A stretch of 64,000 bases of DNA. Source: Candidatus Hadarchaeota archaeon (GTDB taxonomy: Archaea; Hadarchaeota; Hadarchaeia; Hadarchaeales; JAGGTB01). Shown piece after piece: positions 2,840 to 47,940 of this stretch (position 1 is the stretch's first letter; every line of letters begins with the position of its first letter). The stretch is taken from the NCBI GenBank assembly GCA_964384105.1, contig CAYLJV010000001.1:160001-224000 (forward strand), in the 5' to 3' direction. Under the pieces are notes generated by a model. That model made no database searches and was not told the origin of the DNA. It was given only the letters and a program-made list of their open reading frames with translations. The translations under genes were made by a program, and so were the position numbers.

Positions 2840-3045
2840 AAAAACGGAAATAACTATTGATGAAACTTATAGAAAGGCTAAGAAGGTTTGAATGATTTTC
2901 TACCTGAAAAAGAAGAAGGCTATAACCTCTCTAAAACCCTTGAAAACGCAATTAAAGAGAAATTAAACAACTATGATAAGCGGATTAATAATGATCAGTT
3001 CTTGAGCGGCCGTGGTCCAGTGGCAAGACTCTGGCTTCCCGAGCC
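2840..3045 (+). pseudogene. Integrase intN fragment (RHH/CcdA-like), degraded at its 5' end
   Basis: KEEGYNLSKTLENAIKEKL reads in frame into the att-encoded LSGRGPVARLWLPEP; an upstream ITIDETYRKAKK piece lies in another frame. Confidence 0.65.
2997..3045 (+). repeat. att site, right copy, overlapping the intact tRNA-Gly
   Basis: Identical to 1382-1430. Confidence 0.95.
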
Positions 3046-3079
3046 AGCGACGCGGGTTCAAATCCCGCCGGCCGCACCA
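3006..3079 (+). tRNA. tRNA-Gly (CCC), CCA encoded
   Basis: Acceptor GCGGCCG/CGGCCGC, anticodon arm CTGGC-TT-CCC-GA-GCCAG, T arm GCGGG-TTCAAAT-CCCGC, ends ACCA. Confidence 0.98.
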
Positions 3080-22743: not shown

Positions 22744-23904
22744 TCATTCAGATATCAATTTTGTCAAACTTTCCATCGTTGCGTCCGTTCTTATCCCATT
22801 GCTTAGAAAATGCGTTCTTGAGGCAAAATAGCCGTTTTTCCTAAGTTTTTGAATAGCATGATTGATCTTAGGTGGGGATGCACCAGATTTTGAGCAAACC
22901 TCATGGAGATCATAGAATATGGGTGGCCCTTCGTTCTCTTTTGCCAAGGTTTCGAGTAGGTTTCTTTCTTCTCCGTATAGTTTGAAGTTTCTTAGGGAGA
23001 GGTCATTTATCAGGGCTTTTATGTGTTCTTTATCTCCCATCTTTTCGAGATATAGTGGGCCCGCTTGTTTGTATTTACCACCACATTCGCAGTTTTCTGG
23101 CAGGTTTGGAAAAAAACCTTTTTTGTAAGTTCTCTTTCCGCATTGAAAACAGTGAGCTAAGTAACCTTGATCTTTCAGAATTCGGTTAGCTTTCCTTGCT
23201 CCTTGGTCAACTTGAAAGTGGATTCTGAAATAGTGTTGAGTAGCATGGCTTAGAAGGGGGATCAGAGCAAGATCAAAAGCTGCTGCTTTTCTTTGTATTG
23301 ATCCAACTAGAATTCTTAGTCCCAGTTCTCTTGAGTAGGGAGTTCTTAGGGGTGTTGAACCGTATTTTCTCTTACATGCGTTTGGATACGCTCCGCATAG
23401 GGGTGCAGTGTCAGTGGCTGTTATCAGAAGGGCACCTCTTCTAGATATTGCAGTGAAGGAAGGCTCTAGGAATGGAATGGGGGTACCAAAAGGGTCAATA
23501 TCTATAATATGGAATCTTGGTCTGTGATTATAGAGTAAAACATTAGCGTCTTCTCTCTTTGCTTCCGCTACGGAGAGTTGATTGTGTTTTATGTTTTTCT
23601 TTATGAATTCGAAGGCATCGGCTGATCTATCATTCACGACTACTTTTTTTACTCCAGAGACCTCTTTTGCATATCTTAGACCTCTAGCACCTATACCAGT
23701 TAGAACATCGCAAATTCTCAGACCATCTATACTCTTTCCGATTACTTGAACGGAAGAAACAGATATATCTCTGGATAGTTCCATTATGGGATTAAAAAAA
23801 ACAGGTGTCTTGGAAGGGACGTACTCTTTTTCAGAAGTTTTGTAGTTTTCTAGTTTTGGTACTTCTAATTTTAATTCTCCTTCTTTGATTATCTCTGTCT
23901 CCAT
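22744..23904 (-). CDS. trm1: tRNA (guanine-26-N2)-dimethyltransferase
   Basis: VFFNP, GIGARGLRY, DIDPFGTP, TATDTAPLCG, ELGLRIL, SRTHF. Confidence 0.96.
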   Translation of the reverse strand: METEIIKEGELKLEVPKLENYKTSEKEYVPSKTPVFFNPIMELSRDISVSSVQVIGKSIDGLRICDVLTGIGARGLRYAKEVSGVKKVVVNDRSADAFEFIKKNIKHNQLSVAEAKREDANVLLYNHRPRFHIIDIDPFGTPIPFLEPSFTAISRRGALLITATDTAPLCGAYPNACKRKYGSTPLRTPYSRELGLRILVGSIQRKAAAFDLALIPLLSHATQHYFRIHFQVDQGARKANRILKDQGYLAHCFQCGKRTYKKGFFPNLPENCECGGKYKQAGPLYLEKMGDKEHIKALINDLSLRNFKLYGEERNLLETLAKENEGPPIFYDLHEVCSKSGASPPKINHAIQKLRKNGYFASRTHFLSNGIRTDATMESLTKLISE

Positions 23905-23958
23905 TTTATCCTATACAGAGTAGAGTCTCCAGCTTTAACTTGCTTTTGAAAAGATCTT

Positions 23959-24495
23959 CTACATATTTTCAAGTATTAGATTAGCTAACTCCTTTGATAT
24001 CTGATCGCGGTTATTTTTGTTTACCCCAAATATCCTGGCGTCTTTTCTTCTTTTCACTTCTCCTATGAATCCACTCTTTGATCTTTTATGTATGACTCCT
24101 ATGGTGGGTTTTTCAGATTCTAGAGCTTTCTTTACTTGTTTTTTGAACTCTTCACTGTGAACTTCCATCGGTGCTATTTCGTCAATTATTAGGAAGTCCG
24201 CTTCTCTGAGCGCTTTAGGAATTGAGTATTTACAAATTTCGTCAATATTAGAAATATTAACTCTATATTTGCTGATCTTCGGTCCGTTATCTAAATCTAC
24301 GTGCGCTAATATTTTTGATTCGCCGCTAGCTATATCTATAATTTTGAATCCTTTTCTAATTCCGTTAGACTTTATCTCTGGACAGTAAATTCCTCCAGCC
24401 TTCAGATCTTTTTCTTTTAATATTTCCGAAGTCCTTTCGACTACTGTAGTTTTCCCACTGCCTGGTGAACCCGTTATTAAAAAATTGTTTGGAAT
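23959..24495 (-). CDS. Nucleoside-triphosphatase (THEP1 family); probable ATT start
   Basis: ITGSPGSGKTT, RKGF, KYRV, IIDEIAPME; SD GAGGGTGA 4 nt before ATT at 24495 (alternative start TTG 24540). Confidence 0.9.
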   Translation of the reverse strand: MPNNFLITGSPGSGKTTVVERTSEILKEKDLKAGGIYCPEIKSNGIRKGFKIIDIASGESKILAHVDLDNGPKISKYRVNISNIDEICKYSIPKALREADFLIIDEIAPMEVHSEEFKKQVKKALESEKPTIGVIHKRSKSGFIGEVKRRKDARIFGVNKNNRDQISKELANLILENM

Positions 24496-24664
24496 TCTTT
24501 CACCCTCTCTACGTGTATATTCTCTGCTTTTGCAGTACAACTTTCCGGATTTTAACGTATTAAAATTTCCAAGACTCTATTAGTTTGCAAAGAGATTATC
24601 TAGACAGTAATGTTATGAATTGAGTGTTGACAAATGAAATGTTATATATGCCGGAGGTGTTTCT

Positions 24665-25332
24665 ATAGGACCTAATTTTGTAGCTGGCCTGGACGAGGCG
24701 GGTAGAGAATCAATCCACTGGTAGATGATTCGCCCAAAGGTCCCGTTCTAGGCCCGATGGTTATATGTGGCGTCGTAGTGAGTCCAAAGGTATTCTCTGA
24801 CCTGAGAGCTGAAAGGGTAAGAGACTCTAAGCTGATAGGCCCCAATCGGAGAGAATTCTTAGACGGGTTCCTAAAAGAAAAGATGAAAAAATATGAGATT
24901 GTTGAATATTCTCCATTTGAGATAGATCGACTCAGGGGTGGAGGAACTAACATAAACCAAATAGAAGCAGAAGGTTTTGCCAAGGTACTAAATTTTCTTC
25001 AACCTTCAAAAGCCTACATAGACTCAGCGAGCGCAAATACGGAAAAATTTGCATCTGATATAGCAAATAAGTTAGAGTGCGAAGTTGAACTGATTGTTGA
25101 GCATAAAGCTGATGAAAATTATCTTCCCGTTTCTGCAGCTTCTATTATAGCTAAAGTTAGAAGAGATCAGAGAATCGATGAATTAAAAGAAGAATACGGT
25201 GAAATAGGATCAGGTTATCCTTCTGATGAGCGAACGATAAGATTTTTGGAAAGATGGGTGGATGGGAACAAGAAATTTCCAGATTTTGTGAGAAAATCTT
25301 GGAAAACTGCTCAAAGATTTTTAAATAAGTGA
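24665..25332 (+). CDS. rnhB: Ribonuclease HII, interrupted by a 32-nt BHB intron (exons 24665-24705 and 24738-25332; 211 aa after splicing)
   Basis: Exon 1 (M)GPNFVAGLDEAGR joins exon 2 GPVLGPMV...VRDSKL...IDSAS...EHKAD...VSAASIIAKVRRD...GSGYPSD...RKSW; the exons are in different frames; probable ATA start after SD GGAGGTG. Confidence 0.92.
24706..24737 (+). other. Bulge-helix-bulge (archaeal-type) intron in rnhB pre-mRNA
   Basis: Central helix GGGT(24700-03)/GCCC(24732-35), bulges AGA(24704-06) and AAA(24736-38), inner helix GAATCA/TGATTC, outer exon-exon helix; cutting after the 2nd bulge nt gives GGT AG|A GGT CCC = GRGP. Confidence 0.88.
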
Positions 25333-25338
25333 GTTTTA

Positions 25339-25624
25339 AGACCCCTGTGTTGCCTTTCCTACTAACTCCAAGCTTCCTCGTCTGCCAAACGGCGTCCTCC
25401 ACTTGGTAACCCTCATGGAAGGCTTTTTCAGGGGTCTGCCCATCATGTTTCGTACCCGGGTTGTCTCTCAGTCATCGACTGGTGTCACGCCAAGCACTCC
25501 TGAAAGGACCGCATGGGTACGGTTTGTTTGATGGATACTCAAGTGTTACCTCAGCATTGCTCTGGCGATCATGTTTTCACGCCAGTCCTCGAAGCTGTGG
25601 TTTTAGCCTTTCATCGCAGTTAGT
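25339..25624 (-). ncRNA. Candidate structured ncRNA of unknown class (~290 nt); strand tentative
   Basis: GC-richer than its AT-rich flank, no credible ORF, about ten complementary segment pairs, several of them crossing. Confidence 0.6.
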
Positions 25625-25818
25625 TTTCTGTATTTAACAAGTAAAAAAAGATATCCTTTTTATTATCCTGCTTAATATTTTAGTCTCACTAAAATTTCTA
25701 AAAGGGTTTTTTATATATTTTGGAGTGAATTTGAGCTTTATTTTTATATTTAAGGAGAATAAAGATAACTCAAAAATTTTCAAAATGCTTATAATAATAT
25801 AAATCTTAAAAATATTCA

Positions 25819-27213
25819 ATGTCGAAGGAGAAAGACGGATATAACTCTCCTTATATTCCCAATAACGATGCAGAAATACGCGAGGAGATGCTCCAAGAGA
25901 TCGGAGTGAAGGATGTCGAAGAGCTTTATGCAGATATTCCAGAGAGTTCTAGATTCAGGGGCAAATTGAATATTCCCCCTTCTATGTCCGAATCTGAAGT
26001 AAAAAAACATGTCTCTTCAATTCTATCAAAAAATAGGTCAAATGAAGAAGTAATTAGCTTTTTAGGAGCTGGTTGCTGGCCTCACTATGTTCCAGCACTC
26101 TGCGATGAGGTTAAGGGTAGGTCCGAATTTTTGACGGCCTATGCCGGGGAGACATATTCCGACTTGGGAAAATTTCAAGCTCTGTTTGAATTTCAGAGCA
26201 TGATGGGAGAACTACTCAATTTAGACGCGGTTGGATTAAGCGTATATGACTGGGCTACAGCCTGTGGAGATGCTGCTAGAATGGCTGCAAAGGTCACTGG
26301 GGATAGCGAGATTTTAGTTCCCAGGTTAATTAATCCGGAGAGATTATCTGTCATGAGAAATTACTGTGAGTCATTGGCAGAAGTAAATCTTGTTGATTAT
26401 AGTCCTGAGACCGGTCTTTTGGACCTGGAGGACTTAAAGGAAAAAATATCCGCGGATACAGCTGGTGTTTACATAGAAAATCCTTCTTACTTGGGGTTTA
26501 TTGAAGAAAATGGAAAGGAAATTTCAGAAATTGCCCATGATTATGACGCATTGAGTATTGTGGGAGTGGACCCGATCTCTTTAGGAGTGTTAAGCCCGCC
26601 CGGTGATTATGGTGCAGATATTGTATGTGGGGAAGGTCAACCCCTTGGTATGCACATGAACTATGGTGGGGGTTTAGTAGGAATATTAGCCTGTCGGGAC
26701 GAAGAGAGGATTGTCTCTGCTATGCCGTGTCAGTTGTTAACCATTGCTCCTGAGGCGGAGGGTGATAATTTTGGATTTTCTTGGTGGGCACTACCAGAAC
26801 GGAGTATGTATTTTGAGAGAGCTAAAGTTAAATCGATTGTTGGGAGTTCTACAGCTCTTTGGAGTATAGCTGCTGGAGTTTATTTAGCGCTGGTGGGATC
26901 TGATTTAGACAAACTCGGAGAAACCATAATGCAGAAATCTCATTATGCGAAGCAATTAATCTCCCAGATAGATGGGGTGAGTGTCCCTGTTTTTGAATCA
27001 TCTTACTTCAAGGAATTCACAGTTAATTTTGATAATACAGATAAGAGTGTGAAGGAAGTAAATCAAGAGCTTCTTGATGAGGGAATTCAGGGTGGGAAGG
27101 ATCTATCTGAGGAATTTCCCGAACTTGGAGAGACCGCACTTTACTGTGTTACTGAAATACATGACCAAGAGGAAATCGAAAAACTTGCTCGAACTCTGGA
27201 AGGGGTGTTGTGA
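25819..27213 (+). CDS. gcvPA: Glycine dehydrogenase (decarboxylating) subunit 1-like, divergent
   Basis: SFLGAG.W.HYVP, RSEFLTAY, QALFEFQSM, PGDYGADI..GEGQPLG. Confidence 0.9.
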   Translation: MSKEKDGYNSPYIPNNDAEIREEMLQEIGVKDVEELYADIPESSRFRGKLNIPPSMSESEVKKHVSSILSKNRSNEEVISFLGAGCWPHYVPALCDEVKGRSEFLTAYAGETYSDLGKFQALFEFQSMMGELLNLDAVGLSVYDWATACGDAARMAAKVTGDSEILVPRLINPERLSVMRNYCESLAEVNLVDYSPETGLLDLEDLKEKISADTAGVYIENPSYLGFIEENGKEISEIAHDYDALSIVGVDPISLGVLSPPGDYGADIVCGEGQPLGMHMNYGGGLVGILACRDEERIVSAMPCQLLTIAPEAEGDNFGFSWWALPERSMYFERAKVKSIVGSSTALWSIAAGVYLALVGSDLDKLGETIMQKSHYAKQLISQIDGVSVPVFESSYFKEFTVNFDNTDKSVKEVNQELLDEGIQGGKDLSEEFPELGETALYCVTEIHDQEEIEKLARTLEGVL

Positions 27214-47852: not shown

Positions 47853-47940
47853 TGGTGCGGGGAGAGGGATTTGAACCCTCGAACCCCTATGGGACAGCGC
47901 CCTGAACGCTGCGCCGTTGACCTGACTTGGCAACCCCCGC
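47853..47940 (-). tRNA. tRNA-Leu (CAG), CCA encoded
   Basis: Reverse complement GCGGGGGTTGCCAAG...CAGCG-TT-CAG-GG-CGCTG, long variable arm, GAGGG-TTCAAAT-CCCTC, ends ACCA. Confidence 0.98.

Follow-up and report, generated by a model that had tools for sequence, protein, structure and literature searches.

We analysed a 64,000-nucleotide stretch of DNA (the window) from a Candidatus Hadarchaeota archaeon (assembly GCA_964384105.1, contig CAYLJV010000001.1, positions 160,001 to 224,000), in which rnhB, the gene for RNase HII, is found in two pieces. The assembly measures 1.62 Mb in 12 contigs and is 90.2% complete. On the plus strand of the window, positions 24757-25332 form a 191-amino-acid open reading frame (ORF) that matches the Pfam family RNase_HII (PF01351) with 122.6 bits, the match running only from profile position 15 to 198 of 199. 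Because the match begins at profile position 15, the N-terminal catalytic segment is absent from this ORF, which bears out the loss of the catalytic DEAG motif reported in a preliminary description of the same DNA. The motif lies upstream in another frame: a piece at 24680-24705, which encodes ...VAGLDEAG and the first two bases of an Arg codon, is separated from the rest of the gene by 32 nucleotides (nt). The whole-length RNase_HII content is divided, with the Asp-Glu of DEAG coming from the upstream piece (exon 1) and profile positions 15-198 from the downstream piece (exon 2). Reading on from exon 1 meets TAG 24722; in the frame of exon 2, reading back upstream meets TAG 24703. The insert falls 14 codons past the likely start, within the Arg codon of DEAG-R-GP, and ATG 24757 comes 19 nt after it; unspliced RNA codes only for a 19-residue peptide, or for a protein from ATG 24757 that has no catalytic Asp-Glu.

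We conclude, from sequence comparison, that the sole rnhB of this genome is very likely interrupted by a 32-nt archaeal bulge-helix-bulge (BHB) intron (24706-24737) that would be spliced from the mRNA. The elements of this arrangement, all on the plus strand, are the following.

24653-24659: Shine-Dalgarno-like GGAGGTG, 5 nt 5' of ATA 24665; function suggested by spacing alone
24665-24705: rnhB exon 1, ...VAGLDEAG plus AG of the Arg codon, with the catalytic Asp-Glu; putative non-canonical ATA start
24686-24699: 5' strand of the outer exon-exon helix h, in which GGCCTGGA, CG and GGC pair with 24740-24754 (fold)
24686-24693 and 24747-24754: arms of the outer helix, GGCCTGGA and TCTAGGCC (sequence, fold)
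24700-24703: 5' strand, GGGT, of the 4-bp central helix H, within exon 1 (fold; invariant in 9/9)
24704-24706: 5' bulge AGA, predicted cut after 24705 (unpaired in 9/9 unconstrained Hadarchaeia folds)
24706-24737: predicted BHB intron, 32 nt, excision of which gives in-frame DEAG|RGP
24707-24731: inner hairpin h', GAATCA 24707-24712 with TGATTC 24726-24731, plus loop (fold, covariation)
24732-24735: 3' strand, GCCC, of the central helix, inside the intron (fold, covariation)
24736-24739: 3' bulge, AAA (3 nt) or AAAG (4 nt), predicted cut after 24737 (fold)
24738-25332: rnhB exon 2, i.e. the last Arg base, GPVLGP..., the remaining RNase HII and the stop (Pfam RNase_HII, 122.6 bits)

An unconstrained RNA fold of 24680-24760 returned the 5' bulge, the 4-bp central helix, the inner stem and the exon-exon helix, and the helices, bulge letters and both TAG stops listed in the preliminary description are all present where it placed them. 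The GGGU/GCCC central helix carries one bulge per strand; the bulges begin at 24704 and 24736, in both cases on the 3' side of the strand concerned. The splicing endonuclease EndA cuts two bases into each bulge, a rule that we re-derived from the position-37/38 geometry of tRNA. When this rule was applied in silico, a cut after the second bulge base restored in-frame DEAGRGP in 9/9 of the Hadarchaeia genes that carry the insert. Moving both cuts one base 3' leaves the mRNA unchanged because an A follows both cut sites, and because both cuts are counted from the central helix the predicted product is independent of the size of the 3' bulge. The preliminary description had given the spliced product as 211 amino acids; the in-frame join stands, and that length requires ATA 24665 as the start.

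To place the insert among its relatives, the exon-2 protein was searched against 41 related genomes, 37 of which gave rnhB once, and the DNA upstream of the best 30 loci was read. An insert is present at the identical codon in 9 of the 30, i.e. in seven genomes of the genus and in G030 and G028, which belong to another family; the other 21 loci are intron-less and read DEAGRGPV without interruption, the same as the predicted spliced product. A pattern for the interrupted form, GAYGARGCNGGNAGA-N(10-60)-AGGNCCNGT, found one match in each of 9 out of 65 genomes of the class Hadarchaeia (own genus g1 7/7, this genome included; g5 1/6; g14 1/1), and the reversed control pattern found none. The Hadarchaeia inserts are 25, 26 (five times), 28, 29 and 32 nt long and shift the frame in every case. 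Exon 2 is open in all seven genomes of the genus, each of which has a single rnhB match with an open frame. Between the rnhB genes of the genus nonsynonymous divergence (dN) is 0.22-0.44, synonymous divergence (dS) is saturated or undefined in 20 of 21 pairs, and the lone computable pair has a dN/dS of 0.13. Sixteen exon and border bases, GACGAGGCGGGTAGAG, are nonetheless identical in all nine carriers, whereas by eye the same codons vary in the intron-less relatives. This invariance despite saturated synonymous sites has the look of an RNA-structure constraint laid over the codons.

In the rnhB gene tree the genus forms one clade (support 100/99) and the two other carriers fall in a part of family f3 that the tree leaves unresolved; the branches with good support imply that the insert was gained or lost at least twice in Hadarchaeia and do not distinguish gain from loss. 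G030 and G028 both have an N-terminal extension (...K-P-Q-x-I-A-G-x-D-E-A-G) and ATA as the 3' bulge, neither of which is seen in G010 and G039, the genus mates of G030. This likeness hints that the gene was transferred together with its intron, or that a genome is misplaced.

Pairing was counted on an alignment of the nine Hadarchaeia carrier sequences. In all, 93.3% of the alignment cells are paired compared with 86.7% in shuffles, the covariation score of 0.356 was matched by none of 500 shuffles, and pairing drops to 50-55% when the partners are slid by one column. The strongest signal comes from the inner helix h', which ranges from 5 to 9 bp; 7 of its 8 aligned pairs have changed on both sides, and 94.4% of its cells remain paired. 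The central helix is invariant and 100% paired in 9/9; its 5' strand is coding (Ala and Gly codons), and the 3' strand is intronic and has been kept complementary. In the outer helix the 10-pair part is 88.9% and the 3-pair GGC part 96.3% paired, with one-sided changes only.

The enzymes that such an intron would need are encoded in the genome. EndA is present once, its N and C domains (PF02778, 57.1 bits, and PF01974, 119.1 bits) lying in a single 178-amino-acid ORF (C1:105623-106159), and RtcB is likewise present once (594.1 bits). Among relatives of EndA with solved structures the best full-length match is the M. jannaschii homotetramer 1a79 and the best-scoring match is the M. kandleri enzyme. 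A profile search of the genome for RNase_HII gave one match only, i.e. no second gene of this family; an RNase HI-type gene is present (42.4 bits, contig C4, 27879-28283). The gene cbf5 (TruB_N), which carries mRNA introns in other archaea, is uninterrupted here, a single open frame of 332 amino acids. Of 48 tRNAs, 11 have an intron as predicted by ARAGORN, and two of these introns are of implausible length: the 1998- and 1443-nt 'introns' at C1:224420-226513 and C3:126454-127985 are probably artefacts of the program's intron option, and would count as long tRNA introns were they real. The endA locus itself lies outside the window (C1:104375-107632), where a tRNA-Trp with a predicted 65-nt intron (C1:105316-105457) precedes endA and a trpS-like ORF, named by eye, directly follows it; Haloferax has an endA-trpS1 operon (PMC7714728).

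From the anatomy, the conservation, the covariation, the identity of the product with intron-less alleles and the presence of both enzymes we infer cleavage and ligation as follows. In the pre-mRNA the two exon flanks would pair to give the outer helix, the last four bases of exon 1 (GGGU) would pair with GCCC of the intron to give the 4-bp central helix, and the body of the intron would fold into a hairpin. Two bulges on opposite strands would then be offered to EndA, which would cut two bases into each. RtcB would join the exons and probably circularise the intron, and the spliced mRNA would direct the synthesis of full-length RNase HII of about 211 amino acids.

Several observations weigh against this interpretation. 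The fold energy is ordinary (z = -1.14, with 23 of 200 shuffles folding equally well), and a loose BHB-like motif has 12,706 raw matches in the whole genome compared with 12,487 for a mirror-image decoy. Since BHB-like geometry is frequent by chance and the energy ordinary, the case beyond chance rests on comparison rather than on the fold, and it is by comparison that the BHB reading of the preliminary description was supported, i.e. by the same codon in nine genomes, invariant borders, a compensatory stem, intron-less alleles, and EndA with RtcB. The 3' bulge also departs, in the stable register, from the textbook 3 nt. In the strict BHB motif a 4-bp helix separates two bulges of 3 nt (Hirata 2019, PMC6379350); here the minimum-energy fold closes the 3' bulge by GGC 24697-24699 with GUC 24740-24742 and leaves a 4-nt bulge, AAAG, whereas a 3-nt bulge requires a lone C24699-G24739 pair adjoining a G-G mismatch. 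The minimum-energy folds of the nine Hadarchaeia sequences all have the 3-nt AGA bulge on the 5' side, and their 3' bulge is 4 nt (AAAG or AUAG). Of the two 3-nt bulges in the preliminary description, the 5' AGA is retained, and the 3' AAA closed by C24699-G24739 is not the form taken by the minimum-energy fold. At the gathering threshold Rfam gave no match at the rnhB intron locus.

The start of exon 1 is a further difficulty, as by eye no in-frame ATG, GTG or TTG occurs from the stop at 24635 up to the intron. The exon-1 frame is open from 24638, and the ATA at 24665 sits 5 nt past GGAGGTG and aligns with the ATG of six relatives of the same genus, in which exon 1 follows the pattern M-x4-[IV]-[AS]-G-L-D-E-A-G. 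Either translation begins at a non-canonical codon here, or the ATA reflects a polymorphism or an error of assembly. The EndA of this genome, moreover, is of the single-subunit size class and alpha4-like in size, and the authors of the cbf5 work tie mRNA introns to the relaxed specificity of hetero-oligomeric EndA (PMC2738675).

Transcript data lend no help. Two metatranscriptome runs matched the region (0.07 and 0.05 of sampled words), and their contigs, when compared with 23900-26000, cover only 25344-25607 and 23926-24094, both outside rnhB; no joints were reported, and the comparison is uninformative on rnhB either way. Nor did the genome yield a convincing second case. A strict scan gave five candidates, rnhB included, compared with two in the decoy, and the other four resemble antisense or ordinary gene starts (no homology check), while the loose motif combined with an ORF-joining filter gave 2087 real matches compared with 2061 in the mirror decoy, equal at every exon-length threshold. 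The genome-wide class of BHB introns proposed in the preliminary description is therefore unsupported here, although the scan was crude, with relaxed motifs and short first exons escaping detection, so that the class is neither supported nor excluded.

EndA might nevertheless cut this RNA without the exons being productively joined, in which case the insert would act as a processing or decay switch that silences rnhB, and the only protein would be the truncated, dead form from ATG 24757. The ATG 19 nt past the insert fits such a switch, and non-tRNA BHB sites can be regulatory, e.g. the intron in the 5' untranslated region (UTR) of Haloferax HVO_1309 (PMC7714728). However, the switch would have no need of the precision with which the frame and the Arg codon are restored in 9/9 genes, nor would it account for the intact coding sequence of exon 1, which stands at the right distance (start, four variable residues, [IV]-[AS]-G-L-D-E-A-G) in six relatives of the same genus and retains ...[AS]-G-x-D-E-A-G in all nine insert-bearing genes. 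As there is also no second rnhB to supply the activity, we regard silencing as unlikely.

Another reading is translational recoding, in which the ribosome would bypass the insert or shift frame across it, as in phage T4 gene 60, with the hairpin as the recoding signal. The insert is short, early in the ORF and able to form a stable hairpin, and the cbf5 introns were themselves formerly mistaken for frameshifting (Yokobori et al., PMC2738675). What is conserved, however, is BHB geometry together with borders that exactly restore the Arg codon, and not matched take-off and landing codons; the invariant GCCC inside the insert is complementary to exon 1, a strand for which a hop has no use, and the lengths vary (25-32 nt in the class, 14-37 nt elsewhere). 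A simple frameshift would put 8-11 non-conserved residues into the catalytic motif; in G002 the frame of exon 1 is open for three more codons and then meets a stop. Recoding is accordingly a quite improbable explanation of the insert.

It is very improbable that rnhB is simply decaying, i.e. that a chance indel has left a pseudogene or truncated remnant, a reading that is already contradicted by the covariation and selection results. The insert occupies the same codon in nine species with saturated synonymous sites, the gene has no other stop or frameshift, the computable pair has the low dN/dS given above, and the hairpin has been kept by compensatory changes. In favour of decay are the missing canonical start of exon 1 in this genome and the RNase HI-type gene. 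The preliminary description had held that relaxed selection on rnhB together with another RNase H copy would speak against splicing; the RNase HI-type gene does exist, dN/dS is low in the one computable pair, and no second rnhB was found. An assembly or sequencing artefact, which a metagenome-assembled genome (MAG) of 12 contigs and 90.2% completeness might invite, is scarcely credible given nine independent assemblies with differing yet compensating insert sequences. Two further candidates were rejected: an intein, as the insert is far too short, and a mobile-element remnant, as there are no repeats and the insert is precisely codon-restoring.

The same site of rnhB is interrupted in archaea beyond Hadarchaeia. 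Among 70 rnhB loci from named genomes, sorted by eye, 48 have the motif in frame by pattern and 14 more are in frame and were missed by the pattern (six alignment offsets, six E-E-A-G variants and two divergent motifs). The remaining 8 are interrupted, and come from a Hadarchaeia relative, one Promethearchaeia (Asgard), one MAG titled Nanohalarchaeota, one unclassified archaeon and four Micrarchaeota. Pattern searches of sampled genomes, the counts of which are lower bounds, found an interrupted rnhB in 24 of 301 Asgard genomes (control 1) and in 4 of 151 Micrarchaeota genomes (control 0), and all 28 of these loci have a match to the entire exon 2 downstream. In total there are 37 interrupted rnhB genes by pattern (9 Hadarchaeia, 24 Asgard and 4 Micrarchaeota), plus five loci found only in the named-genome sample.

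The inserts differ between these groups. In Asgard, 22 of 24 are exactly 30 nt, so that the frame is kept, and there is a stop in the exon-1 frame in all 24; the central helix has four pairs in 16 and three pairs in 8, and is thus weaker than in Hadarchaeia. Many Asgard inserts share a palindromic hairpin around TTCGAA or ATCGA. In Micrarchaeota the cut would fall two bases further 3' (after AGA G) and the inserts are 14-37 nt, the 14-nt one being almost without an inner stem, while two examples (L085 and L104) have the strict 3-4-3 motif with a 4-bp outer helix. EndA is encoded in all five genomes checked from these other carrier groups, and in the two Micrarchaeota genomes among them (G066 and G069) it occupies open frames of about 400 amino acids, which we take to be the size of the epsilon2 type.

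On balance we lean towards the view that the DEAG|RGP site of rnhB hosts the most widespread mRNA intron of Archaea, occurring in at least three phyla (Hadarchaeia, Asgard and Micrarchaeota) as well as in the Nanohalarchaeota-titled and unclassified MAGs. It would either have been gained repeatedly at a 'protosplice' hot spot, where half of a BHB is by coincidence already provided by the codons, or be deeply ancestral and often lost. If this is true, the splicing of coding sequences by EndA and RtcB would be a general archaeal capacity, and not a crenarchaeal curiosity of relaxed hetero-oligomeric endonucleases; it would extend to those prokaryotes that are most closely related to eukaryotes, and a nuclease of genome maintenance could be produced only with the help of the RNA-splicing machinery. 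Since a single codon is affected in several phyla, the long-standing question of how BHB introns spread also becomes directly testable, i.e. preferred-site gain versus ancient inheritance.

The closest known counterpart is the intron of cbf5. Introns of 16-44 bp disrupt the codon of a catalytic residue of cbf5 in Desulfurococcales and Sulfolobales (Yokobori et al. 2009, PMC2738675), and that paper states that splicing had at that time been confirmed in no other archaeal protein gene; it cites a chapter by Brugger et al. 2006 for predicted introns in other protein genes of Sulfolobus. Both cbf5 and rnhB would have a short BHB intron within the coding sequence, at a catalytic-residue codon, so that splicing is required; each is scattered patchily among genomes through gain or loss, and annotation often treats either one as a frameshift. 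They differ in the gene and in the lineages (Crenarchaeota for cbf5; Hadarchaeia, Asgard, Micrarchaeota and the Nanohalarchaeota-titled MAG for rnhB), and whereas the hosts of cbf5 introns have a hetero-oligomeric (alpha-beta)2 EndA, the genome here has one EndA gene, of 178 amino acids, and a near-canonical motif. The rnhB insert is thus the same kind of mechanism as the cbf5 intron and not the same intron. The preliminary description had set its candidate apart from cbf5 as a different gene in a different lineage, which holds for rnhB of Hadarchaeia; the same site in other phyla it did not foresee.

Compared with canonical tRNA and rRNA introns, the layout (h-B-H-B-h'), the rule for the cut positions and the predicted action of EndA and RtcB are alike. 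The host here, however, is an mRNA, the exon halves are made of codons (...GAG GCG GGU AG / A GGN CCN...), and the 3' bulge of the stable register has 4 nt. Schwarz et al. (2020) showed that the 5' UTR of Haloferax volcanii HVO_1309 contains a BHB intron, and give cbf5 as the sole other reported case (PMC7714728). As predicted for rnhB, EndA there acts on an mRNA outside Crenarchaeota, and the intron was seen as a circle once excised; unlike the rnhB intron it lies in an untranslated leader, where the frame is intact, and it was shown experimentally whereas the rnhB intron is predicted. The only papers on archaeal mRNA introns cited in a 2025 structural study are those on cbf5 (PMC12397907), a 2026 review of non-canonical splicing has no mention of cbf5 (PMC13149111), and a 2026 preprint on Asgard tRNA introns contains no occurrence of mRNA or RNase H. 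An intron in archaeal rnhB or RNase HII was not found in the literature searched, the scope of which left out supplements and most subscription papers; one paper that contains both 'bulge-helix-bulge' and 'RNase HII' (PMC3082918) does so in unrelated passages.

A more distant parallel is found in eukaryotes, where HAC1 and XBP1 undergo unconventional splicing by IRE1 and RtcB. This splicing is mentioned in the review cited above (PMC13149111). As with rnhB, a short frame-changing mRNA intron is concerned, with a protein endonuclease acting at stem-loops and an RtcB-type ligase; the endonuclease and its recognition motif are different, and HAC1/XBP1 splicing is a stress switch while the rnhB intron is known from sequence only.

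It looks as though rnhB would be only the second archaeal protein-coding gene known to be spliced by tRNA-type machinery. As a second gene, found in unrelated lineages and combining a single-subunit EndA with a near-canonical motif, it would show that such splicing of mRNA is more general than thought. The intron would account for the truncated or frameshifted appearance of rnhB in these genomes, and would guide the re-annotation of interrupted rnhB genes that are otherwise called pseudogenes or N-terminally truncated proteins. It also offers a compact substrate of about 80 nt for biochemistry.

Elsewhere in the window, a structured RNA lies on the minus strand just downstream of rnhB, at 25343-25653. 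It matches the whole of the Rfam model HgcG/Pab40 (an H/ACA-box small RNA), weakly (25 bits against a gathering score of 77; E = 4.6e-5), and 25344-25607 is covered by contigs from the two metatranscriptome runs, in one case exactly. This is probably an expressed multi-hairpin H/ACA guide RNA that is too diverged for the curated threshold. The next gene downstream, at 25819-27213 on the plus strand, matches the glycine-cleavage P-protein family. At 47853-47940 on the minus strand ARAGORN predicted an 88-nt tRNA-Leu (CAG), while Rfam at its gathering threshold gave only a tRNA-Gly at 3006-3076.

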